NCBI GenBank assembly: GCA_031260805.1
Contig: JAISKV010000004.1
Span: 4,227-68,226, forward strand
DNA: 64,000 nt
Source: Rickettsiales bacterium
GTDB lineage: Bacteria; Pseudomonadota; Alphaproteobacteria; Rs-D84
Reading direction: 5' to 3'
Below, one piece after another: positions 208 through 62,681 of the stretch (positions within the stretch are counted from its first letter, which is position 1; every line of letters begins with the position of its first letter). A program made the translations under genes and the position numbers. The notes below the pieces were generated by a model. That model had not been told where the DNA came from and searched no databases. It saw nothing but the letters and a program-made list of their open reading frames with translations.

Positions 208-555
208 TTATGCCAGCAGCGACTCAAACTTTGCGATGAATGATTTCAGCAAGTTTGGCTTTTTCGTCTTTAATTTGGAAATCTTTTCCATGTTCGCCAA
301 TCGTTTTGACTGAAAAGGCTCTTCCGTTTCATCGCGCAGTCTTTTAAGAACCGCTTCATCGCTCATGCTGCGCCCTGATGCGCCGCTTGCGCCGTATTTG
401 GCGCGCTGGGCGGCCAAGGCTTTCTTTACCAGATTCGCCTTGGCTTTTTCGTCTTCGGCAATCTGCGCCAAGATTTTTGACTTCTCGGCCTTGGTCGCGT
501 TGTTTGCTTTTTTGTTTGTGATTATTTCCTGGATGTCGTTTACAATTGTTCCCAT
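208..555 (-). CDS. Hypothetical K/E-rich coiled-coil protein, last gene of the phage-like operon in this window (internal virion or scaffold-like)
   Basis: ORF directly downstream of the gp12-like gene; charged, low-complexity helical composition. Confidence 0.4.
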   Translation of the reverse strand: MGTIVNDIQEIITNKKANNATKAEKSKILAQIAEDEKAKANLVKKALAAQRAKYGASGASGRSMSDEAVLKRLRDETEEPFQSKRLANMEKISKLKTKKPNLLKSFIAKFESLLA

Positions 556-574
556 TTTTACACTCCTGTGTTTT

Positions 575-2287
575 TTATATTAAATACTGGCCTTCCATTT
601 TTATGGAAAGTATTGTCGCGCGCATGCCGCTGGTTCCTGAAATTTCCCACGGCGACGATGTCGCTGCGCGGTTCGTTCCCAGAAATACTGCTGACACGGC
701 ACCGGAAAACGGTTCCGTGAAAGTATGTTCAGATTCTGATTCGCAAACTGTGAATTTCAGATAATCCGATTCATGCAGCACGGCCGAGATTTTATTTATG
801 CGGACCTTTTCCGGCATGTGCCCGCCGCCCAGCATAGGCAGTCCGGATGCAGAGTATTGAAACGGCGGCTCGTCCGGGTCATCTGAAAATTTTTCCAGCC
901 AGAAATCGTCCCCGCGCCGCACGATGGCAAAAGTTTCATTGCCCAGGGTTACGACGGATCTGAATTGCCCGTCTGTTTCATACCGCGCCCAGCCCGAGAT
1001 TCCCATTTCGGAATTTTTATTCAAGACCGCCATGGTTCCGTCCGCCATCGCGACGAACAATTTTCTCGCCGCGCCGTTAAATGAAATGTCAACCGGCCCG
1101 TTCATCAAATGCCGCGCCGCCGCGCACAAATCGCGCGCGTTGTAATTCTGCTGCAAGTCATCCAGAACCAGTTCGCGCAATTCATCGCCTGTGCCGGCGA
1201 TGAAAACGGTGCAGTTTTCAATGCTCTGCGGTTCCAGATATTTTTCGCCGAAAGTGCCGATGGTGGCGTGCTGCTTGATGTCAATGGTTGAAGGCGTCAG
1301 CGGCTTGCTGGAAATCGCCCACACGCCGGCCGTGGTCAGAATCTGCAAGTTGTCGCAGGATACGGCCGTGCAGATTCTTTGCCTTTTGGATGCCAGCAGA
1401 GTCATGAAAATCGCTTCGTCATCCAATCCCGTTCCAGCGTTGAAATTATAGTGGTCGCCGACCTTGGACATCCAGATTCCGGCATCCCATTCGCGCGATC
1501 CGCCGAATACCAGACGGTTCTGATGGAATGTCGCGCAGCGCGGATATCCGCGGCGCGCGCTGAATGCCGATTCAGACCAGTCGCTCGTCTGCGTGCCTGG
1601 CGTCGTCCATCCGCCGTTCGTGTACGCGACGATCTGCGTCGGAGAAATGTATGACGAAATTATCCACTGCTTGCCCAGCGCCGTCAAATTCCCGTTAACA
1701 TTTCCGGCCGTCCAGAAATTACCGCTTGCGGTTATGGTGGCATAGTTCGTGCCTGCGCCGTTTTGCGCGAATGTCAGTTTAATATTCAGCGAATCGTCAA
1801 AGCGCATGAACGGGATATTGCGCGACATGTCGTCATTCACGCTGAAATAAAACTGCGCGATATCAAATGATTCGTCCGGCAGTTTTTTCAGCACCATCGG
1901 CGGATGATTTTCATGCGTGAAAATCATAGTGCCGAATCGCTGCGTGTACTGCACCGACGGGGTTTCGGCATCATTCCAAGGGGTCTGCAAATTTTGATAA
2001 AATTCGCCGTCCGGCGAAAAGATATCCACATGCCCGTCTGACAATGCCAGAATAAAATTGCTGCTGTCATCCGCGCAGTACGGGACCAGCACTGAATTTT
2101 CCGCAACGCCGTGCAGCCGCCGCAATCCGCGCCGCGGACGAATCGCTCCGCTGTCCGCGATGTCCATGTTGCACAGCCGCGCCAGCCCCGACGCCGCAAA
2201 TCCGTTGTCGCCGCGCCCCAGAAATTCCGGCGATATCTCGCCGTTTGCAAAAGAGTTTTGCGTCTTGATAAATTTTCCCATGTTCAC
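575..2287 (-). CDS. Phage tail tubular protein B-like (T7 gp12-like)
   Basis: N-terminus FIKTQNSFANGEISPEFLGRGDNG ... SGAIRPRRGL recalls T7 gp12 SIKNLKGGISQQPDILRYPDQG ... EGLQKRPPL; it follows the gp11-like gene with an ATGA overlap. Confidence 0.45.
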   Translation of the reverse strand: MNMGKFIKTQNSFANGEISPEFLGRGDNGFAASGLARLCNMDIADSGAIRPRRGLRRLHGVAENSVLVPYCADDSSNFILALSDGHVDIFSPDGEFYQNLQTPWNDAETPSVQYTQRFGTMIFTHENHPPMVLKKLPDESFDIAQFYFSVNDDMSRNIPFMRFDDSLNIKLTFAQNGAGTNYATITASGNFWTAGNVNGNLTALGKQWIISSYISPTQIVAYTNGGWTTPGTQTSDWSESAFSARRGYPRCATFHQNRLVFGGSREWDAGIWMSKVGDHYNFNAGTGLDDEAIFMTLLASKRQRICTAVSCDNLQILTTAGVWAISSKPLTPSTIDIKQHATIGTFGEKYLEPQSIENCTVFIAGTGDELRELVLDDLQQNYNARDLCAAARHLMNGPVDISFNGAARKLFVAMADGTMAVLNKNSEMGISGWARYETDGQFRSVVTLGNETFAIVRRGDDFWLEKFSDDPDEPPFQYSASGLPMLGGGHMPEKVRINKISAVLHESDYLKFTVCESESEHTFTEPFSGAVSAVFLGTNRAATSSPWEISGTSGMRATILSIKMEGQYLI

Positions 2288-2808
2288 CCCCGCACGCCGA
2301 TCAGCGGAAAGTTTTGTATGCCGCGAATCGGCGAATTGCTGCTGTCAATGAACTTGGCGTTCGCCAGTTCCAATTCATATAATCCGGACAGAGTTCTGAA
2401 TAAATTCTGATCGCCTGTCAGCGGCATGCAGAATTCCATGGCCAGTTTTGTCGCGGCGACCCCGATGAAATGACTGGGAAAAAATTCGCAGGATTTTTTC
2501 GCTATGGCGATTATTTTTATATTTTCCGCCGCGGTGAAAATCTCGTTTCCAATTATCTCGAAATTGCTTTCCGAACAAGAAATAATGCGCAGGACATCGG
2601 TCGGAATTGCAAATCCGCCGGATGCGCTGCGCGTCAAATCATATTTCATCGTCGCGAATCTCCAAGGATGCGCGGCGGTCAGATTGTCAATCGTCATGTC
2701 CCACACGGCGGCGGCCAGCATTGCGGCGGCCGAATTCTCATCCAGGGCCGCAATCGGCTTTTCCCCCAGTTTCAGCAAAGCCAGTGAAATTAAGTCAATT
2801 TGCGTCAT
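2284..2808 (-). CDS. Phage tail tubular protein A-like (T7 gp11-like)
   Basis: N-terminus IDLISLALLKLGEKPIAALDEN ... HPWRFA resembles T7 gp11 NDILASIGEPPVSTLEGD ... RGWTFN; gene order capsid, gp11, gp12 as in T7-like podoviruses. Confidence 0.45.
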   Translation of the reverse strand: MTQIDLISLALLKLGEKPIAALDENSAAAMLAAAVWDMTIDNLTAAHPWRFATMKYDLTRSASGGFAIPTDVLRIISCSESNFEIIGNEIFTAAENIKIIAIAKKSCEFFPSHFIGVAATKLAMEFCMPLTGDQNLFRTLSGLYELELANAKFIDSSNSPIRGIQNFPLIGVRG

Positions 2809-2809
2809 G

Positions 2810-3034
2810 TTAAATCCTTTTTATTTTTACGGCTGGCGCGGCGTCTGTTATCTTGAACAGCGCGGTGTCGTCCAAACCGCAGATTATTATTATGTCGCCG
2901 CCGTTCATCAGGCTTTTCATAGTGTTGAAAAATCCGTCGCAGCACAAAGCATCCATTTTGTCATGCGAACTGTAATGCCACAGCGTGAATCCGTTCGCGT
3001 ACGCGATGACGGACAGGTTTTTGTTTTGGAACAT
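2810..3034 (-). CDS. Small hypothetical phage-module protein
   Basis: 74 aa ORF packed between the hairpin and the gp11-like gene. Confidence 0.3.
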   Translation of the reverse strand: MFQNKNLSVIAYANGFTLWHYSSHDKMDALCCDGFFNTMKSLMNGGDIIIICGLDDTALFKITDAAPAVKIKRI

Positions 3035-3044
3035 GCTAAACTCC

Positions 3045-3133
3045 TTGGTTAAGTTTAAGGTTTGAGGTTTGAGGTTTAAGGTTTAAGGTAATTTTGTCAA
3101 TAACCTTAAACCCCAAACCTCAAACCTTAAACC
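3045..3133. terminator. Long near-perfect hairpin (aaggtttaagg / ccttaaacc arms, about 32 bp stem) immediately downstream of the capsid-like gene
   Basis: Inverted repeat seen directly; its position mirrors the T7 T-phi terminator after gene 10; the same aaggttt motif flanks host terminators elsewhere in the window. Confidence 0.5.
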
Positions 3134-3137
3134 TTGT

Positions 3138-3953
3138 TTATTCGCCGCACTTGATTTTAACGATGCCTTCGTTGTCAATCAGAACGCTGCCTTGGCTCAT
3201 GGAATTGCAGACAAAGTGCGAAGCGCGTTCGCCCACCCACGAGATGTCTGTTTTGACATCTTGGCCGACCGCGTGTCCGATTGCGGACGCGTGATACATA
3301 AAGCAGTCGCGCTCGTCATCGTCCACAGGCAATCCGTTGTGCAAAACCCAAATGACGCCCAGCCATTTCTTGGTCTCGAACCCAGACACCAGCGGTGTTT
3401 CGCCGCCGACATATTCCGCGGAAACGAATTCGTCCATGGACAGCAATTCATTCCACTGATGCACACCGACAACGGCGAACCTGCGCCCGTCATCAGGAAT
3501 GTCATTCGCGTTCAGCGATTCAATCGCGGACAAAATTCCGTCCTTGGTCAAACCGTCAGAGTAATCGCCGACAAAGTTGGTGGCGGCCGCCATTGAATTG
3601 ATAATCAATTCATCTGTCTTGCGCCCCAGCGCGTACGCGCCCGCGGACGCAACGACGCGCCGCTCGTCAATGTTGGTTTTGATTTCGTCCAACGCGTCAA
3701 CCCAGTCGCCGGCATAGTAATCCTGCAAGGCGCATTCAACGGATGTGTGCGCCAGATTCATGACGGGAACCAAGTCATGACGGGTTTTCGTGCTGGCGGT
3801 GCCGCGTCCGACTTTTTGGAAAGTCGTGCTGGAACCGACAATGCCGTCTTTGGAACGGATGGTGCTGCGCAGTTTTGTGCCCATCTGCTGGTATGCGAGA
3901 TGAACATCGGCCTCGAACTGCTTGACAAAGGCCTGGTTTATGCTTGTTGACAT
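3138..3953 (-). CDS. Putative phage major capsid protein
   Basis: 271 aa ORF at the capsid position, upstream of the gp11-like and gp12-like genes; no strong motif, so this is a positional call. Confidence 0.4.
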   Translation of the reverse strand: MSTSINQAFVKQFEADVHLAYQQMGTKLRSTIRSKDGIVGSSTTFQKVGRGTASTKTRHDLVPVMNLAHTSVECALQDYYAGDWVDALDEIKTNIDERRVVASAGAYALGRKTDELIINSMAAATNFVGDYSDGLTKDGILSAIESLNANDIPDDGRRFAVVGVHQWNELLSMDEFVSAEYVGGETPLVSGFETKKWLGVIWVLHNGLPVDDDERDCFMYHASAIGHAVGQDVKTDISWVGERASHFVCNSMSQGSVLIDNEGIVKIKCGE

Positions 3954-4106
3954 TATATTTTCCTTTGGTTGTAAAAAAACTTCGCGTATGCGAAGTCTGA
4001 TTGATTTGATTGTCCGTTATGCGTTGCCGCGCGGATTCTCAAATATCGCGGGTCCCAAAGATTTTCCGCAAATAGAAATGCAAAAAAATCGCCCGAAGGC
4101 GATTTT

Positions 4107-4373
4107 TTATTTTTTAACGACTTTTTTTGCCGCCGGTTTTTTCGCAACAACTTTCTTTGTGACCGGTTTTTTCACCGCGACTTTTTTCACCGCCGGTTTT
4201 TTCGCAACAACTTTCTTTGCGACCGGTTTTTTCACCGCGACTTTTTTCGCCGCCGGTTTTTTGGCGACAACTTTTTTCGCAGCCGGCTTTTTCGCGGCGA
4301 CTTTCTTTACTGCCGGTTTAGCAGCCGGTTTCGCGGCGGCTTTGACAACAGGTTTTTTTCCAAACAATGCCAT
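4107..4373 (-). CDS. Lys/Ala-rich basic repeat protein (histone H1-like), encoded by about 60 bp tandem DNA repeats
   Basis: AAKKPAAKKVVAKKP periodic repeats; tandem nucleotide repeats at 4121-4300; the plus-strand ORF 3922-4446 is its antisense artefact. Confidence 0.5.
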   Translation of the reverse strand: MALFGKKPVVKAAAKPAAKPAVKKVAAKKPAAKKVVAKKPAAKKVAVKKPVAKKVVAKKPAVKKVAVKKPVTKKVVAKKPAAKKVVKK

Positions 4374-4496
4374 TTTTCTCTCCTTTCAGGACTTAGTCAT
4401 TAGAAACAAATTTTATTGTTCCTTAACCACATTGTATCTGAAATAAAATTCGCGTGCAAGAGAAAAACATTTTTTGCGAATTATTTTTTATTTTTT

Positions 4497-5096
4497 TCAA
4501 CTGTATAATTTTCTGAAACCAGATTCTATTTTCCGGATGTGTTCGCCGTCGCGGTCGCGCCAGTATTTAGGATCCGCCATCATTTTTCGCAACGCCGCGT
4601 CATTCAGGGATTCCGCGGTGTTGGATGCGGTTTCAATTTTCGGTTCGGACGATCGCATCATCGCGAACACGGACTTGATTCCTTCCGCAGACCGCGACAA
4701 GTTTTCATACACATCGCCCGGCAGAAATTTTTCGCCGAAAGAATTTATTTCGCGCATCGCGTCATTCATTTTGTCTTCGCCGCCGAAAAATTTCTTTAAC
4801 TCTGCAAAATTTTCCGATTCGTATTGCGTTGAAAAAATGTTTTCCAGAACCGGCTGCAAAAATTCGTTCGCGATTTCATAAATTTTTTCCGCCTGGGCGC
4901 GGGACAGCCCCGCGTCCTTAAAGCGCTGCTTTAACTCTGCCGATGAAAACAGTTCGTGTTCCGGGTACTCGTTCGGGTCTTCGGGAATGTCGGCCGTTCT
5001 GGCCCCCAGTTTTTTTTCCAATTCGGCATAAGATTTAATCAGCATTTCATTGTTCAGCGAGCCGTCTTCATTCTGAAACTTTTTTGGGACTTCCAT
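4497..5096 (-). CDS. Acidic helical hypothetical protein (scaffold-like)
   Basis: 199 aa acidic, helical composition; sits upstream of the capsid-like gene as in T7 gene 9. Confidence 0.4.
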   Translation of the reverse strand: MEVPKKFQNEDGSLNNEMLIKSYAELEKKLGARTADIPEDPNEYPEHELFSSAELKQRFKDAGLSRAQAEKIYEIANEFLQPVLENIFSTQYESENFAELKKFFGGEDKMNDAMREINSFGEKFLPGDVYENLSRSAEGIKSVFAMMRSSEPKIETASNTAESLNDAALRKMMADPKYWRDRDGEHIRKIESGFRKLYS

Positions 5097-5292
5097 TTTT
5101 TCTCCTTTTGTTATCCATGCCGCGGCGCAGGAAATAAATCCCGGCCAGCGGATAAATTGCGTTCAGCATCTCGAATATGTTTTGCAATCCGGTTAGGTAC
5201 GCGCCGACGGCCGTCAAAATGCCGATGCCGGAAATTATAAAAGTGCGATGCCCGGCCAGCGCGCCGCCGGAAATTATCTGCTTTAATTTCAT
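5068..5292 (-). CDS. Small membrane protein (holin-like: hydrophobic segments plus a charged C-terminal tail)
   Basis: Start moved to MKLKQ so it abuts the stop of the upstream gene; hydrophobic segments and a basic tail. Confidence 0.35.
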   Translation of the reverse strand: MKLKQIISGGALAGHRTFIISGIGILTAVGAYLTGLQNIFEMLNAIYPLAGIYFLRRGMDNKRRKNGSPKKVSE

Positions 5293-5296
5293 AGAA

Positions 5297-5692
5297 TCAT
5301 CCTTTGTAGAATAAAAAATCGCCGACTTCGGCGATGTATCCAATATTGTAAGCCCAACTGGGGTTTTCGTTCTGGCGATGAAACCGCACCGCGCCGTTCA
5401 CACGATCGGGCAGTAGTTTTTTAAGCGATGCCTTTGCAACGCGCGTCGCCATTTTGATTTCCGGTGAATCGGAATCGGCGTACGCGAATCCGACCGGTGC
5501 GAACATGGGAATGATTTCTTCCCAGTCGCGGTCGTACTGTTCGCACAGATTATTTAACGCTGATGCGACGGCCTCGCATTCGGCCAGGGTCCTGGTCGCG
5601 CCCAGCGCGTTCAGTATCCGCGCTATCTTTGCGGCGGTTATGTCAAATTCGCTTTCATTTTCATAAACGGTCAGTTCCATTGGCGGCTCCAT
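5297..5692 (-). CDS. Hypothetical protein
   Basis: Start trimmed to MEPPMEL to avoid overlap with the divergent gene at 5808. Confidence 0.4.
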   Translation of the reverse strand: MEPPMELTVYENESEFDITAAKIARILNALGATRTLAECEAVASALNNLCEQYDRDWEEIIPMFAPVGFAYADSDSPEIKMATRVAKASLKKLLPDRVNGAVRFHRQNENPSWAYNIGYIAEVGDFLFYKG

Positions 5693-5807
5693 AAAAAAAA
5701 GCCGCGAATGCGGCGTAAAAAAAACGCGCCTTGCGCGCATCGTTGTTAAAAGCAGTATATCATAAAATGGCATTAAAATCAAGTCAAAAATATGATATAA
5801 TTGTATC

Positions 5808-11909: not shown

Positions 11910-12037
11910 TTTCAGCCCCTTAATATATCTCTAACTTTTGCATTTATAGCAAATAAAGACAGCCCTTAGCAATAGGAATTTTTATATTTATTTATATAAT
12001 TTTTATAAGATTTAAGGAAGGGATAACAAAATATATA

Positions 12038-12212
12038 CCACTACCCCGTCTGCCTGCGGCGTCCACCCCTTCGCTTGGCGAAGGGGATTTACTTGGCCTG
12101 TACCATACAATAAAACAACACTTATTGAAACGAAGTCGGGATAATTCCCCTTCGCCAAGCGAAGGGGTGGCATCACGCCGAAGCGAAGCGTAGGCGGATG
12201 ACGGGGTAGTGG
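12038..12212. repeat. Palindromic repeat element, family A (ccactaccccgtc ... gacggggtagtgg with ccccttcgctggcgaagggg hairpins)
   Basis: Terminal inverted repeats; other copies at 32178-32312, 35757-35893, 46630-46828, 62516-62665, partial at 32497-32560. Confidence 0.7.
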
Positions 12213-12303
12213 TAAAAAAAAGTGATAATAAAGTATAAAGAATGGCATAAAAATTCTTGATTTCACCAATGAAGTTTATTACAATAACGCGGCATTGAAA
12301 AAT

Positions 12304-16994: not shown

Positions 16995-17200
16995 GGCCAG
17001 TTCCCCTCCCTTGGAGGGGTGGCCGAAGGCCGGGGTGGTTTACAAAAGTAGAGTTCAGAGTACAGAGTTCAGTTTTTTACAAATCACGCAGTGAATTTAT
17101 AAAAATATTTATTATTTTCACTCTTTTCACTTTTTTTACTTAACTTTGGTAAACCACCCCGCCGCTACGCGGCACCCCTCCAAGGGAGGGGAACTGGCCA
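16995..17200. repeat. Palindromic repeat element, family B (ggccagttcccctcccttggagggg termini, internal ttcactcttttcac tract)
   Basis: Full copy also at 50653-50854; short hairpin-only copies at 38913-38942, 46863-46985, 57241-57275, 63601-63640. Confidence 0.7.
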
Positions 17201-17270
17201 CTCTCGCACCTTAAACCTTACACCTCAAACCTTATACCTCTAAAAAACGCGGCGTCCGCCGCGTTTTTTA

Positions 17271-29881: not shown

Positions 29882-30562
29882 TTATCTTCGGTTCAATAGC
29901 GACAGCACATACTGGAACATTGCGATGAACGAGATGTACAAGTGCAATGCGCCCAGCACCGCCAATTGGCCTTCGGATTCGCGCGGGACCGAGTTGTATG
30001 CGTTCTTCAAGAACTGCATGTCATACGCGGTGAACAGCGCGAATACCAAGACCCCGATGATGGATACTATCATATTCGCGGTGCTGCCAAAAGGCCAGAA
30101 CATGCTGATAATTCCGGTTATAATTAAACCAATCATCCCGATGAACAAGAATACGCCCATGAACGAAAGGTCTTTGGTCGTCTTGTACCCGAACAGCGCC
30201 ATGCATCCGAACATCAATGCCGCGATGACAAAGGCCTGCAACACGGATACAGGATTGACGGCCAGCGCGAACGCAACCAGCGGCGCGATGCAGAATCCCA
30301 TCGCGGCAGAATAAATGGCCAGACATCCCGCGCCGCCCGCAGCGGACATCTTGAACGCGCGCGCCTGGGCGAACAGCGACAGTCCGAATGCCGCGAACAA
30401 AACTATGTAAAACAGCGGCGAAACACTGCCCGATTCCGTGATTATCAGCGGCAATCCCCAGCGCAGCGTCGCATATGTCGTCAGCGCGGTCAGGCCGACC
30501 GCCGCAAACATGACTGCGAAAATCCTTTTCAGATATAATTCAATTCCTGATTTTTTGGCCAT
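29882..30562 (-). CDS. BAX inhibitor-1/YccA family membrane protein
   Basis: Seven hydrophobic helices with the family-typical layout; start at MAKKSG after a ggaga RBS. Confidence 0.6.
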   Translation of the reverse strand: MAKKSGIELYLKRIFAVMFAAVGLTALTTYATLRWGLPLIITESGSVSPLFYIVLFAAFGLSLFAQARAFKMSAAGGAGCLAIYSAAMGFCIAPLVAFALAVNPVSVLQAFVIAALMFGCMALFGYKTTKDLSFMGVFLFIGMIGLIITGIISMFWPFGSTANMIVSIIGVLVFALFTAYDMQFLKNAYNSVPRESEGQLAVLGALHLYISFIAMFQYVLSLLNRR

Positions 30563-30630
30563 ATTTTTCTCCTTGTAATTGCGACAACGAATATAATACA
30601 CTTTTGACTGGAAATCAAGGAAGATAAAAG

Positions 30631-32097: not shown

Positions 32098-32356
32098 GAA
32101 TTAGATAAAAATTAAAAGATAATAGATAAAAATTTCCGACTATCGTTCCGGCCTTTGCTGGAATAACAAAATATATACCACTACCCCGTCGCGCTGCGCG
32201 CGCCACCCCTTCGCCAGCGAAGGGGATTTATCCTTACTTCGTTTCAAGTGCAGGCCATCAAATTCCCCTTCGCTGGCGAAGGGGTGGCGCGCGCAGCGTG
32301 ACGGGGTAGTGGTATATAAAAAAACGCGCCGTACGGCGCGTTTTTTCGTTATTTAT

Positions 32357-35699: not shown

Positions 35700-35952
35700 A
35701 AAACGCGGCATCGCCGCGTTTTTTTGAGACATGTGAAATGAGATATGAAACATGAACCACTACCCCGTCCGGCTGCGCAGTCCACCCCTTCGCTTAGCGA
35801 AGGGGAGTTGTCCGAACTTCGTTTTAATGTGCAGGCCAACGAATTCCCCTTCGCTGGCGAAGGGGTGGACGCCGCAGGCGGACGGGGTAGTGGTAAAAGA
35901 AGTGAAAAAACATTTGTAAAATTTGGAATGATGATATAATATTGCCGTAAAT

Positions 35953-45797: not shown

Positions 45798-46322
45798 TTA
45801 TTTCTTTCTTCCGGCTTTGGCCAATTGATCTTGCAGCGCGGATTCAGATGCCAGCCCCAAAACAATCGGATTCTGCACCACGATAGAACTGTAATTTTTA
45901 TGCGTTTTGTTCCGTATGGACGCGACTGTCGGATTCGTGCTGCGCATCAGGCGCGCAATCTGGCCATCTGACAGGTCCGGATAGTTTTTGACAATCCACA
46001 AAATCCCGCCCAGGCGGTTTTGACGATGCAGTTTCGGCGTATACCCGACGCCTTTTTTGTTCATAGACTTTTGCGCGTCAACGATGACGGTGCGCAAATG
46101 CAGTTCCGCCGTCGGATCTGCTTCGGCCGCTTCAATGTCTTCCTTGGTCAATTGGCCGGAAATTATAGGGTTCAGGCCATTGATTTTGTGCTTTTCTGCA
46201 TCGGCAATGGATTTAACCTCTAACTCGTGCATGCCGCAGAACTTGGCAATCTGGTCAAAGTTCAGGGCAGTGTTTTCAATCAGCCACAAAGCAGTGGATT
46301 TTGGCATATACGGGTAATTCAT
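45798..46322 (-). CDS. DUF1013 family protein
   Basis: N-terminus MPKSTALWLIENTALNFDQIAKFCGMHELEV matches the conserved DUF1013 N-terminus. Confidence 0.6.
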   Translation of the reverse strand: MNYPYMPKSTALWLIENTALNFDQIAKFCGMHELEVKSIADAEKHKINGLNPIISGQLTKEDIEAAEADPTAELHLRTVIVDAQKSMNKKGVGYTPKLHRQNRLGGILWIVKNYPDLSDGQIARLMRSTNPTVASIRNKTHKNYSSIVVQNPIVLGLASESALQDQLAKAGRKK

Positions 46323-46610
46323 AGGGAACCTTTCTTATTAGCGGATAGAATATAATACAAAGTTTTTGATTTTTCAAGACTTTTATGAAAAAAGAAACCC
46401 GCCTTGCGGCGGGTTTCTTCCGAGTATCCAAAAGGAAGGAAGGAAGGAGAAAACGGACACTCTAAACTGTAAAAGGTGCAGCACGGATCAGAGGAGAGAG
46501 AATGTAGGAGGGAGTCTGAATCCGTGCTGCTTGTTGATTGGTTTCCCATCCAACGAATCGTAATATAATACATAAAATCCGTTTGTCAAGTATTTTCTTG
46601 ACAAAATATT
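46323..46610 (-). promoter_or_regulatory. Promoter (TTGACA-N16-TATATT) with overlapping palindromic operator ttgtcaag-N6-cttgacaa, then a leader of about 230 nt holding a 13 bp hairpin and an intrinsic terminator (possible attenuator, riboswitch or sRNA)
   Basis: Read directly on the minus strand; terminator aaacccgccgcaaggcgggtttcttttttc about 60 nt upstream of the ATG. Confidence 0.5.
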
Positions 46611-46987
46611 TTTTATCGTCGTTGTTTTACCACTGCCCCGTCATCCGCCTACGCTTTGCTTCGGCGTGATGCCACCCCTTCCCCGGGCCCCGCGAAAAAC
46701 TTCGTTTTTCGTGGGTGGGTCCCAGCGAAGGGGATTTAATGGCCTGCATCACACAGTATTAAAACGAAGTCGGGATAATTCCCCTTCGCTGGCGAAGGGG
46801 TGGCCGCCGCAGGCGGACGGGGTAGTGGTAATATATTTTGTCATCCCATCCTTAAATCATACTTCATAAATCCTGTAAACCACCCCGCCGCTGCGCGCCA
46901 CCCCTCCAAGGGAGGGGAATTGGCCGCTCTCGCACCTCAAACCTAACACCTTGAACCTCAAAAAAACAGGCGCCTGCGCGCCGTTTT

Positions 46988-47866
46988 TTAATGCCGCTTG
47001 CGCCACCAAATCGTGGCAAATATGCCTACAAATCCCAGTATCATCAAGAATATCCACAATGCGGCATGACTATGCCCGGCAAATGGCAGCGCGACATTCA
47101 TCCCATAATACCCGACAATTATTGTCGGTATCATCAGTATGATATTCCAAATTGTCAGCCGGTTAATATATAAATTCGCGTCAATCTGGGTGGCGCTGTA
47201 AAAAGTATCCTTGACCGCGCGCAGCATTTTGGAATAACTGGTAATAATCTCGCTGGCCTGGCTAAGTTCAATTTTCACATCTTCCAGCAAATCTTCCAAA
47301 TCTTCTGTTGCCTTGAAGGCCCGGATTTTCTCTAATTTTTCCACAACCCCGATATTTCCCTTGATGCCGGACATATACAGCGTGTAAGAGTTCTCTATTT
47401 CCAGCAATTGCATCAGATCGGATTTGCTGATTTTCTTTTGCAGATTGGTTTTGGCGGTGAACACCTTGCGATTCAGTTCTTTCAGCGATTTCAAGTAAGA
47501 TTCTGAAATATAATACAGCGCGTTCAGAATCAGCATTTCGCGGCTGTCTTTTTCGCGCGATTTGATTTTGTCCAGCGCGTCGCACCGCTTGCGGCAGATG
47601 GTTATTACGCGGTTTGGCGCATAGATTATGGATAAAGGTTCTGTATGCCAGGCTGTTTCCGTCTCGCGGTTTACGATTGGAAAGCGAACAATGATGTTTT
47701 TGTAATCGTCTTCGGTTTCCACGCGCGATTGTTCGTCCGGGTCCAGAATGTCTGTAATGGTGTCTTCTTCAATGTCATAGTATCGTTGCAGGCGCGAAAA
47801 GTCATCATGGTCCGGGTGCGCCACATTAATCCAATTGAAAGAATTTAATTTATCGGTGTCAAACAT
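46988..47866 (-). CDS. corA: Magnesium/cobalt transporter CorA
   Basis: YGMNV (GMN) motif and two C-terminal TM helices. Confidence 0.85.
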   Translation of the reverse strand: MFDTDKLNSFNWINVAHPDHDDFSRLQRYYDIEEDTITDILDPDEQSRVETEDDYKNIIVRFPIVNRETETAWHTEPLSIIYAPNRVITICRKRCDALDKIKSREKDSREMLILNALYYISESYLKSLKELNRKVFTAKTNLQKKISKSDLMQLLEIENSYTLYMSGIKGNIGVVEKLEKIRAFKATEDLEDLLEDVKIELSQASEIITSYSKMLRAVKDTFYSATQIDANLYINRLTIWNIILMIPTIIVGYYGMNVALPFAGHSHAALWIFLMILGFVGIFATIWWRKRH

Positions 47867-47997
47867 GCCTGCATTCTACCGCGAAACCCGCATATTTGCA
47901 AATTTAAGTGCAGGTGTAGGTGAAGGTGTAGGGTGAAGGCCATTAACTTTCACATGCACCTACACCTGCACTAAAAAAACGGGCTTGCGCCCGCTTT

Positions 47998-48402
47998 TTA
48001 TTTCTTCCAGAAACCCCAGCCCTTGCGGTCGTCGCCATCGCGTCCACCGCCACGACGGTCGCCGCCGCGATCATCACGACGGTCATATCCGCCGCGCCGT
48101 TCGCCGCGATCACCGCCACCACGACGGTCGCCGCCGAATTCGCTGCGTCTTTCCTGAAACTTTTTCGCGCTTTCTTCGTCGCGTTTCACCATTTCAATTG
48201 TTGTAACGGACAGTTTTCCGTTTCTGACTTCGGTATCAAACTTAACAATATCGTTTTCGTTCAAGAAACGAATATCTGCATTTTTCAGAGCAGTTGCGTG
48301 AACAAATACATCTTCTGTGCTGTTGTTGGCATCCGGTTCATCAGGTGTTATGAAACCGAAACATTTTTTACCATTGTACCATTTTACTTTACCTTGACGC
48401 AT
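47998..48402 (-). CDS. cspA: Cold-shock protein with C-terminal Arg/Gly/Asp-rich tail
   Basis: CSD motifs KWYNGKKCFGFI and VFVHATAL; RGG/RGD repeat tail. Confidence 0.8.
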   Translation of the reverse strand: MRQGKVKWYNGKKCFGFITPDEPDANNSTEDVFVHATALKNADIRFLNENDIVKFDTEVRNGKLSVTTIEMVKRDEESAKKFQERRSEFGGDRRGGGDRGERRGGYDRRDDRGGDRRGGGRDGDDRKGWGFWKK

Positions 48403-50652: not shown

Positions 50653-50906
50653 AGTTCCCCTCCCTTGGAGGGGTGGCCGCAGGGCGGGGTGGTTTACAAA
50701 ATTAAAGTTCAGAGTACAGAGTTCAGTTTTTTACAAATCACGCAGTGAATTTATAATTTCACTCTTTTCACTCTTTTCACTCTTTTCACTTTTTTTACTT
50801 AACTTTGGTAAACCACCCCGGCGGCTATGCCGCCACTCCTCCAAGGGAGGGGAATACGCTTGACAATGGGCGCATAGTTGGTAAACTGCCCGCAAAGGGA
50901 AGCGCG

Positions 50907-61272: not shown

Positions 61273-62514
61273 ATGACATACATACTCGCGCTCAATTGTG
61301 GCAGCAGCACGCTGAAATACCAGATTTTTGATGTTGATTCGCACAAAATCGTTATCAGCGGAAATGTGCAGAAAATCGGAAATCCGGGGTCTTTCATAGT
61401 CCAGAAATATACGGACGGAACAAAACAGCAAAAAGATACTCAAATCGCAAATCATAACGAAGCGTTGAACCTGGTGTCATTCATGATGCGCGAAGCGTCC
61501 ATAGACTTGACGCAAATCGTCGGCGTAGGGCACCGCGTTGTCCATGGCGGGGAGAAGTTTTCTTCGTCTGTTGAAATAACGGACGAAGTCATCCGTACTA
61601 TTTCTGAACTTTCGCCGCTGGCCCCATTGCATAATCCTGCGAATCTGGTCGGGATTGTCGCTGCCCAGCAGTTGTTGCCGAATGCAAAGCAGGTCGCGGT
61701 TTTTGACACCGCGTTCCATCAGAGCATGCCCGACTTTGCATACCGGTATGCCGTGCCGCGCGCATGGTATACGGAATTGGGCGTGCGCAGGTATGGATTT
61801 CACGGAACTTCGCATTTGTATGTTTCCAAGCGGGCGGCCGCCATGCTGGGCAAGCCCGCATCGCAATGCAATCTGATAACCATGCACATCGGCAGCGGGG
61901 CGTCCGCGGCCGCAATCCGGGGCGGGCGCAGCGTGGATACTTCGCTGGGCCTGACGCCGCTGTCCGGACTGACCATGGGAACGCGGCCAGGGGATCTGGA
62001 TCCGGGCGTGATAATGTATGTCATGGACAGGTTGAAAATTGACAGCAAAACAATGCAAACGATACTTAACAAGCAGAGCGGTATTTTGGGAATCACCGGA
62101 TGCTATGAAGACCGCCGCGATATTCTGGAACATCTGGGCGACAACGACGACTGCCGTCTGGCGCATGACATAGAAGTTAACAACGCCAAGAAATTCATCG
62201 GCGCGTACATGGCGGAACTGGGGCATGTTGACGCGATTGTATGGACAGCCGGTGTAGGCGAAAACGGATCGCTGCTGCGCGCGAAAATAATGGCCGGATT
62301 GGAAGATTACGGAATAAAGATTGATGCGGAGAAAAACGATGGCACCGCGACAATGTGGGGCAGCGGCGAAACAGAAATCAGCGCGCCTGATTCGCGTGTG
62401 AAAGTATTTATGATTCCGACGAATGAAGAATTGGTCTTGGTTGAAGATACGATTGCGATAATCAACGGCACATACAATCCAAATCACTTGGAAATGAATT
62501 ATAGTTTTGTGTAA
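61273..62514 (+). CDS. ackA: Acetate kinase
   Basis: Acetokinase motifs NCGSSTLKY, VHGG and HLGNG-like. Confidence 0.9.
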   Translation: MTYILALNCGSSTLKYQIFDVDSHKIVISGNVQKIGNPGSFIVQKYTDGTKQQKDTQIANHNEALNLVSFMMREASIDLTQIVGVGHRVVHGGEKFSSSVEITDEVIRTISELSPLAPLHNPANLVGIVAAQQLLPNAKQVAVFDTAFHQSMPDFAYRYAVPRAWYTELGVRRYGFHGTSHLYVSKRAAAMLGKPASQCNLITMHIGSGASAAAIRGGRSVDTSLGLTPLSGLTMGTRPGDLDPGVIMYVMDRLKIDSKTMQTILNKQSGILGITGCYEDRRDILEHLGDNDDCRLAHDIEVNNAKKFIGAYMAELGHVDAIVWTAGVGENGSLLRAKIMAGLEDYGIKIDAEKNDGTATMWGSGETEISAPDSRVKVFMIPTNEELVLVEDTIAIINGTYNPNHLEMNYSFV

Positions 62515-62681
62515 AATCCCCTTCGCTGGCGAAGGGGTGGCGTCCCGCCAAAGCAAAGCGTAGGCGGACGACGGGGTAGTGGTAAATAAGATTAAGTTTC
62601 TGTATCCACTACCCCGTCTTGCCGCTGACGCGTCAATCCACCCCTTCGCCAGCGAAGGGGAATTAAAACAGAGGTTTTCTT

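Follow-up and report, generated by a model that had tools for sequence, protein, structure and literature searches.

The 64,000-nucleotide stretch analysed here (contig JAISKV010000004.1 of a Rickettsiales bacterium of the Rs-D84 lineage; hereafter “the window”) carries on its minus strand, 5′ of the gene trcR, a short element that is very probably an independent, conserved and structured non-coding RNA gene. As judged from sequence comparisons, it belongs to a previously undescribed small RNA (sRNA) family, of a known kind, in reduced-genome gut alphaproteobacteria related to Candidatus Enterousia (order Rs-D84). In the explanation that we favor, the sRNA would be transcribed from its own sigma-70-type promoter, which bears a family-specific duplicated −35-like element, and would end at its own terminator, and two long, single-stranded and pyrimidine-rich loops presented on covarying stems would base-pair in trans with purine-rich ribosome-binding regions, so that translation would be blocked. 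Expression, mRNA pairing and target identity are what we infer here, and we regard the explanation as a whole (stand-alone sRNA gene plus base-pairing mode of action) as fairly probable, a judgement that blends high confidence in the gene with a more hesitant view of how it acts.

The promoter of this gene (P1, see Table 1; window coordinates of the sRNA, promoter and trcR features refer to the minus-strand reading) shares first place among the 19 sites that reach 10/12 or more when both strands of the 64 kb are considered. The predicted RNA of ~170 nt folds into four hairpins (stem-loops SL1, SL2 and SL3, and the terminator; −67.6 kcal/mol, z = −7.46), with a stability reached by none of 200 shuffled sequences, and pyrimidines make up 88% of the SL2 loop and 100% of the SL3 loop. 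Several of these components had been recognized in the initial annotation of the sequence: its promoter TTGACA-N16-TATATT is present, its hairpin at 46478-46530 was recovered with 15 computed pairs, and its terminator at 46385-46415 is retained with slightly corrected coordinates (stem 46421-46390, U-run to ~46385). A scan tool overlooked this terminator, since an A-run further upstream takes up part of its U-run by pairing. The ~230-nt transcript initially proposed has to be replaced by a terminated transcript of ~170 nt, with SL1 and SL3 as additional hairpins. The exact 11-mer TGTATTATATT has four copies in the window, all on the minus strand (1.16 expected even with one mismatch), of which three are promoter-like (46562-46572 in P1, 46349-46359 in the trcR promoter P2, and 30590-30600, 5′ of the gene at 29882-30562) and the fourth lies within corA (47507-47517).

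Homologues of the element were not to be found through its neighbor. The identity of TrcR falls from 100% to 82% with nothing between, and exact-protein matches came only from the same sample, so the window lineage has no close sequenced relative; a synteny route via 160 trcR loci (TrcR relatives of 74–81% identity, from genomes and metagenomes of Candidatus Enterousia-like gut alphaproteobacteria) gave no homologue with nhmmer or blastn. A spurious 84-aa open reading frame (ORF) spanning the element, used as a query of a large protein collection, returned two weak matches (P0121 and P0122), and the contigs behind them contain a clear DNA homologue in a different gene neighborhood. Six more loci came from scanning viral contigs for exact matches to the conserved loop; four further 16-mer matches (L173-L176) were rejected as chance, lying inside coding sequence without flanking stems, and for this reason serve to calibrate the loop scan. 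A HMMER search of 1.84 billion protein clusters with a profile of three ORFs retrieved 34 representatives at E <= 1e-3 (11 at E <= 1e-10), with translations of both conserved loop modules in 28/28 representatives whose sequences were retrieved, and six of these ORF-cluster representatives were followed back to their DNA. Homologues of a non-coding RNA can thus be reached through spurious ORFs called in protein databases. Overall, the family comprises 12 further loci plus the window, i.e., 13 sequences of which about eleven are distinct, scoring 112–211 bits with covariance model R1 (160 bits for the window, match 46389-46557, E = 4e-39).

In a MAFFT alignment of six of these sequences, 95.5% of the cells at the proposed pairs are paired (87.3% in shuffles) and 15/44 pairs changed on both sides (5.0 in shuffles, with 0/500 reaching the observed value; 0–4 for slid partners), and an alignment of all 13 sequences gave 92.8% and 22/44 (8.6 in shuffles, again 0/500; 2–8 for slid partners), with the reservation, to be held against our interpretation, that the latter alignment was fitted to the model and favors its structure, while MAFFT is free of this bias but n = 6. 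RNAalifold independently predicted the same four helices. Among the 13 sequences, changes on both sides affect 6/8 pairs of the SL3 stem and 8/13 pairs of the terminator, which is present in all members. The check proposed in the initial annotation, conservation and covariation of hairpin and terminator in relatives, therefore came out positive and points to a real RNA. At the sequence level, the P1 hexamers are conserved in 13/13 members and module 1 is identical in 13/13 sequences, while module 2 (SL3 loop, AUUUCUUUUUCUCCUUUCCUUCCUUUC) and the linker AGUU(U/A/C)AG(A/G) are nearly invariant. The carrier genomes are distant, with a capsid-like protein 73–77% identical to that of the window and other proteins of the same cluster at 29–51%. 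Given that the loops stayed identical while the non-capsid cluster proteins drifted this far, the sRNA is probably a central regulator.

Two other readings of the locus were considered. That the region instead encodes a small protein, from the 84-aa ORF (46573-46319) or a shorter internal ORF, has a next to negligible probability: an ATG-initiated ORF does span the region and gene callers called counterparts in other genomes, but its ATG falls within the −10 box, a Shine-Dalgarno (SD) sequence is lacking from every ORF of the transcript, and the internal ORFs, including the longest, run through the terminator without a stop. Module 1 is moreover read in all three frames in different members, from the same start, conservation peaks at the nucleotide level in the loops while the stems show compensatory changes, and neither P0121 nor P0122 has a recorded Pfam domain. 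The other reading is a regulated leader or attenuator of trcR, in which transcription from P1 would stop at the terminator or read through into trcR. Seen from the window, the element does adjoin trcR in the same orientation, with the terminator 62 nt before the ATG (~60 nt in the initial annotation), and some read-through from P1 is conceivable. This gap, however, holds a second promoter that the initial annotation did not mention (P2), whose −10 box ends 26 nt before the trcR ATG, and a promoter scoring at least 9/12 is found within 100 nt of the trcR ATG in 157 of the 160 relatives' loci, mostly as TTGAA(A/T)-N17-TATATT with the −10 box ending 25–29 nt before the ATG. In most of these loci cysS and its terminator (in some, another gene) lie directly 5′ of this promoter, and the hairpin element is absent from 160/160 (nhmmer, blastn, covariance model), the weak covariance-model matches at L070, L112, L065 and L002 being terminators of convergent genes and not family members. 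Conversely, trcR was not called in the fetched DNA of any of the 12 other sRNA loci, and the gene 3′ of the sRNA varies: it is convergent in L163/L165, L177, L179 and L181, where the sRNA is for that reason not a leader, and has the same direction in L182/L183.

Since P2 is conserved in relatives and the element is missing from their trcR loci, trcR is served by a promoter of its own, and the element is no leader of the gene; going by these loci, P2 would drive trcR separately, and the region upstream of trcR does not include the element as a conserved part. The initial annotation had proposed a leader or an sRNA, and the comparison with relatives upholds the latter and largely refutes the former, which is now highly unlikely. 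No alternative antiterminator fold is evident in the predicted fold of the window RNA, and no link between the sRNA and trcR was found: the loops are predicted to pair poorly with the start region of trcR (−3.4 and −5.1 kcal/mol), and trcR was rejected as a target.

The conserved loop also occurs in phage sequences. Three IMG/VR contigs (L169, L170 and L172) carry hairpins whose loop is the same 22-nt core of module 1, CUCCCUCCUACAUUCUCUCUCC, on stems that are related neither to the bacterial stems nor among themselves, and these units (two in L169, and those of L170 and L172) score 23–41 bits with the covariance model. The unit of L172 consists of TTGACA-N17-TATAAT, one hairpin and a U-run. 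The phage-like contig L169 (231 kb) contains two tandem promoter-to-terminator-like units (3990-4660, minus) in ~1 kb without ORFs, both with the module-1 core and the upstream one also with module-2-like tracts in swapped order, and in L170 the hairpin lies just after a small gene in a recombination module. L170 and L172 encode typical phage proteins; integrase was not found in the 12–13 kb fetched from them. No copy was seen in deposited phage genomes or plasmids, in a search where the BLAST low-complexity filter may hide the loops. In the favored explanation, phages would carry their own promoter-to-terminator units showing the loop-2 sequence (that of SL2), presumably acting on the same partner. 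The hairpin stem of L172 (11620-11725, minus; GCAGCAC / GUGCUG) coincides with the outer SL2 stem of the window, which may hint that this copy derived from a host of the window's lineage.

As for the mode of action, predicted pairing points to start regions as the most likely sites, an assignment whose chances we put at roughly even. The reverse complements of the loops, GAGGAGAGAGAAUG and AAAGGAGAAAAAGAAAUG, read as start sites (SD-spacer-AUG), and in predicted pairing the loops prefer start regions of the window to the interior of coding sequences (p = 0.004 and 0.0006). Across 1.09 Mb of clade DNA, the longest loop complements besides sRNA genes and chance matches are almost all start regions, among them those of a small helix-turn-helix (HTH) gene divergent from the sRNA gene in relatives, of a gene in L136 and of a scaffold gene (window 5097-5108). 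A number of observations speak against this part of our interpretation. Composition-matched shuffles pair with window start regions at least as well as the real loops in 188/200 (loop 2) and 195/200 (loop 3, that of SL3) cases, and since shuffled loops pair as well, generic anti-SD pairing is rejected as the reason for loop invariance. The target search was confined to ~1.1 Mb of clade sequence; in it, the divergent HTH gene was rejected as the conserved target (well matched in five loci, poorly in four) and the scaffold-gene match is moderate. Finally, the hosts of the phages were not assignable, a structural protein being unmatched and a methylase matching phages of many hosts.

A serious rival to base-pairing, which we hold to be unlikely although far from negligible, is that the RNA binds or titrates a conserved protein or the ribosome (e.g., a cold-shock-domain, S1-domain or KH-domain pyrimidine-tract binder) without mRNA pairing, so that the invariant loops would be protein-recognition sites and phages would copy loop 2 to compete for the same factor. 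Cold-shock, S1 and KH domains have a preference for pyrimidine binding. The invariance of the exact loops although shuffled loops pair equally well, the lack of a single conserved mRNA target among those searched, and the retention of loop 2 by phages on unrelated stems are all in line with such a partner, as is a cold-shock-domain protein with an Arg/Gly-rich tail encoded 1.4 kb away, a conceivable partner of the sRNA whose proximity may be coincidence. A protein site, on the other hand, would not need loops that read, when reverse-complemented, as start sites with an AUG at sensible spacing. The phage copies could alternatively reflect a DNA-level site, the shared 22–29-nt core being a phage attachment (att) core (attB/attP) and not an RNA loop. 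A short identical core with unrelated flanks common to phage and bacterial DNA resembles att sites, and the relatives' sRNA gene adjoins a phage-like capsid cluster; but each phage's flanks form their own complementary stem, L169 and L172 have promoter-like and terminator-like signals, the phage copies lack the bacterial 3′ part needed to rebuild the gene after integration, and the covariation of the bacterial stems points to selection on RNA structure. Together with the integrase result above, this makes an att site very unlikely. Going beyond the base-pairing explanation, one might speculate, though we rate this scenario as rather improbable, that the invariant loops are idealised antisense copies of a translation start site, or sites for a conserved factor, which exert clade-wide control of translation, and that loop 2 was captured by phages to take over or blunt this control. 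If true, host and phage would here compete by means of a shared RNA module, in a lineage that is uncultured and without any described regulatory RNA.

Upstream of P1, the initial annotation had proposed a palindromic operator over the −35 box. The perfect palindrome is there (TTGTCAAG-aaaata-CTTGACAA at 46604-46583; exact, nine pairs with two more flanking bases, the second arm holding the −35 box), but the relatives do not support an operator of this form. In an alignment of the upstream regions of the 13 members, the 12 others have an A5-T7 tract, TTGACAA, 5–6 nt and a second TTGACAA (= −35), and the window alone has TTGTCAA at the distal position; its palindrome exists because the distal repeat has undergone one substitution and a 1-nt insertion. 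A tandem TTGACAA-N4-7-TTGACAA is found at the sRNA promoter in 14/14 of the relatives' sRNA loci and nowhere else in 169 loci. On this evidence, the conserved promoter signal is a promoter-specific direct repeat and not an inverted repeat, and the palindrome is lineage-specific. Nor did the palindrome regulon envisaged initially materialize within the 64-kb window, where the pattern occurs exactly once, with two matches at up to three mismatches (0.32 expected) and no second convincing copy. A link between the tandem repeat and a winged-helix-like protein encoded nearby in relatives (see below) is only a lead.

The genomic context of the sRNA differs between the window and its relatives. In the latter, the gene sits at the end of a phage-like cluster and is divergent from genes for a Cro/C1-like protein and a ~145-aa protein, lipB, and phage-like hydrolase, scaffold and capsid genes. 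The small Cro/C1-like HTH protein (81–94 aa) is 78–100% identical among the relatives' loci, with a sub-threshold match to Pfam HTH_26, and the ~145-aa protein has a C-terminus that is weakly OmpR/PhoB winged-helix-like, its Trans_reg_C match lying below the Pfam cutoff; NCBIfam gave no match for either. Their genes lie at 4555-4800 and 4040-4549 of L163, with orthologues in L167, L168, L171, L178 and L180-L182. That these neighboring proteins are regulators is, from their sequences, only a lead. The window has no copy of the small HTH gene, even at a relaxed threshold, and no match to the ~145-aa protein or the relatives' lipB (comparison at E <= 1e-8). It does contain the phage-like cluster (208-5728, minus), with a tail-like protein, a PF19821 capsid, a T7-type scaffold and a hydrolase. 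Across distant genomes (L163 1-3300; L167, L168, L171, L181), the capsid is 73–87% identical and the neighboring proteins 29–51%, and these sequences suggest a domesticated particle-forming cluster. The sRNA gene of the window is 40 kb from the capsid cluster, between corA and trcR and beside a multi-copy palindromic repeat, a location unlike that in the relatives, so that the gene has moved in this lineage. With such different neighborhoods, the sRNA is conserved independently of its flanking genes, and what looks like a “leader” in a single genome can turn out to be an independent gene that has relocated.

Table 1. Features of the sRNA locus and associated repeats in the window.
Feature	Position	Strand	Description
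Small RNA gene	46385..46557	-	~170 nt, predicted 5′ end to end of terminator U-run; ends inferred from promoter and terminator
Promoter P1 of sRNA	46562..46589	-	TTGACA (46589-46584), N16, TATATT (46567-46562); 11/12 matches
Distal −35-like element	46597..46604	-	TTGTCAAG in window (left arm of palindrome); family consensus TTGACAA, first unit of tandem direct repeat
SL1, variable 5′ hairpin	46533..46554	-	Longer or doubled in relatives
SL2 hairpin	46478..46530	-	15-pair stem, 22-24-nt loop; loop holds module 1; outer stem covaries
Module 1	46490..46518	-	CAGACUCCCUCCUACAUUCUCUCUCCUCU, 29 nt; SL2 loop and closing pairs
SL3 hairpin	46422..46462	-	Loop is module 2; window UUUUCUCCUUCCUUCCUUCCUUU, family consensus AUUUCUUUUUCUCCUUUCCUUCCUUUC
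Intrinsic terminator	46385..46421	-	Stem 46421-46390, 14 bp, GC-rich, GCAA loop; then U-run UUUCUUUUUU to ~46385
Promoter P2 of trcR	46349..46377	-	TTGAAA-N17-TATATT; between sRNA terminator and trcR ATG; not part of sRNA
trcR (DUF1013, PF06242)	45798..46322	-	Pfam E = 7.7e-39; 3′ neighbor of sRNA
Multi-copy palindromic repeat abutting sRNA promoter	46627..46831	.	16-nt terminal inverted repeats
Further copies of this repeat	about 12006-12220, 32159-32318, 35756-35896, 62514-62665
Second, shorter repeat type	46875-46945, about 16995-17218, about 50655-50855

The repeat next to P1 resembles miniature inverted-repeat transposable elements (MITE) or repetitive extragenic palindromic (REP) sequences: it is palindromic, with ends CACTACCCCGTC...GACGGGGTAGTG, folds as a long hairpin (−110 kcal/mol) and has at least five copies in the window. 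In a short-read assembly of this organism there is a break within the first repeat element, and a similar element lies 5′ of trcR in L071/L110; the corA-trcR spacer is an insertion hotspot. The cold-shock-domain protein mentioned above (47998-48402, minus) is a single-strand nucleic-acid binder with a long Arg/Gly/Asp-rich C-terminal tail. Between its gene and corA lies a long near-perfect hairpin (47903-47976, minus), noticed only through a mir-197 match at noise level, that probably terminates the cold-shock-domain gene.

The product of trcR was described as poorly characterised (DUF1013) in the initial annotation, which is out of date, as Pfam PF06242 is now TrcR. In Caulobacter, TrcR is an RNA-polymerase-associated cell-cycle factor, according to Delaby et al. 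(2021) as cited in PMC12864828. The protein collection contains a single further copy of the window's TrcR (P0001, from JGI, 169 aa), which spans 97% of the 174-aa ORF and fits a start at Met6; the ATG at 46322 is the likelier start, because the longer N-terminus MNYPYMPK is conserved in relatives. Many of the relatives (L002-L161, 10–45 nt 5′ of the trcR ATG) have GGGGC in the promoter spacer and GCCCC just after the −10 box, a pair that is absent from P2 of the window and that may, by its sequence, be an inverted repeat bracketing the −10 box.

Turning to known systems, no Rfam family matched the window region at E <= 10 or reached its gathering score in eight member loci, and the motif was not found in the literature searched, in which the papers on Enterousia and Rs-D84 cover genome content only. 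We know of nothing published on gene regulation in Rs-D84/Enterousia. These bacteria are widespread in animal and human guts, their genomes are smaller than 1 Mb, and none has ever been brought into culture (PMC12306168). What makes the family interesting is how invariant its loops are, together with a tandem repeat specific to its promoter and the copies carried by phages; it offers a defined, testable entry point with one promoter signature, two candidate seeds, few candidate targets and phage-borne mimics.

Among described RNAs, the cuckoo/alpha-r14 group (RSs0680/CcsR1-4 in Rhodobacter; C14/SmelC397 and NfeR1 in Sinorhizobium) is alphaproteobacterial and has several adjacent hairpins with C/U-rich, anti-Shine-Dalgarno-like loops that each carry CCUCCUCCC, on stems varying in a compensatory manner and with sequence conservation confined to the loops (PMC4615179). 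The four helices found here (SL1-SL3 and the terminator) fall within the two to four adjacent hairpins of that group, the loops are likewise unpaired and C/U-rich, and by analogy the architecture would be that of a trans-acting sRNA pairing with ribosome-binding sites. However, CCUCCUCCC is absent from 13/13 members (the closest string, CUCCCUCCU, occurs in one loop only), and lacking this defining motif the family is not a member of the cuckoo group. Its two loops are also mutually different and much longer (22–27 nt), its host order is Rs-D84, no alpha-r14-type covariance model rises above noise at E <= 10 in the window, and cuckoo RNAs are not described as having phage copies.

Similar partial likenesses were noted for other systems. 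RsaE/RoxS-type sRNAs of Firmicutes are trans-acting, and their C-rich unpaired motifs pair with the G-rich ribosome-binding sites of many mRNAs, a pairing that explains the strong conservation of these motifs. There is no sequence or structural relationship to the present family, and their motifs are short C-runs, compared with invariant blocks of 22–29 nt here. At the promoter level, PhoB/OmpR-type promoters have tandem direct repeats that overlap or replace the −35 box. The sRNA promoter resembles them in its two 7-bp direct repeats, of which the proximal one is at −35 and which are specific to one promoter, and in the weak winged-helix match of the protein encoded nearby in relatives; it differs in a repeat period of 12–13 bp (vs. 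about 11), in a Trans_reg_C match that remains sub-threshold (16 bits vs. a cutoff of 26) and in the absence of that neighboring gene from the window. For the phage copies, DicF and the anti-sRNA AgvB of enterohaemorrhagic E. coli prophages are examples of phage or prophage sRNAs that share or oppose the seeds of host sRNAs. In both cases mobile elements encode short RNAs that plug into, or here would plug into, a host RNA regulatory network, but the phage RNA described here would display the host loop sequence itself, not its complement, on an unrelated stem.

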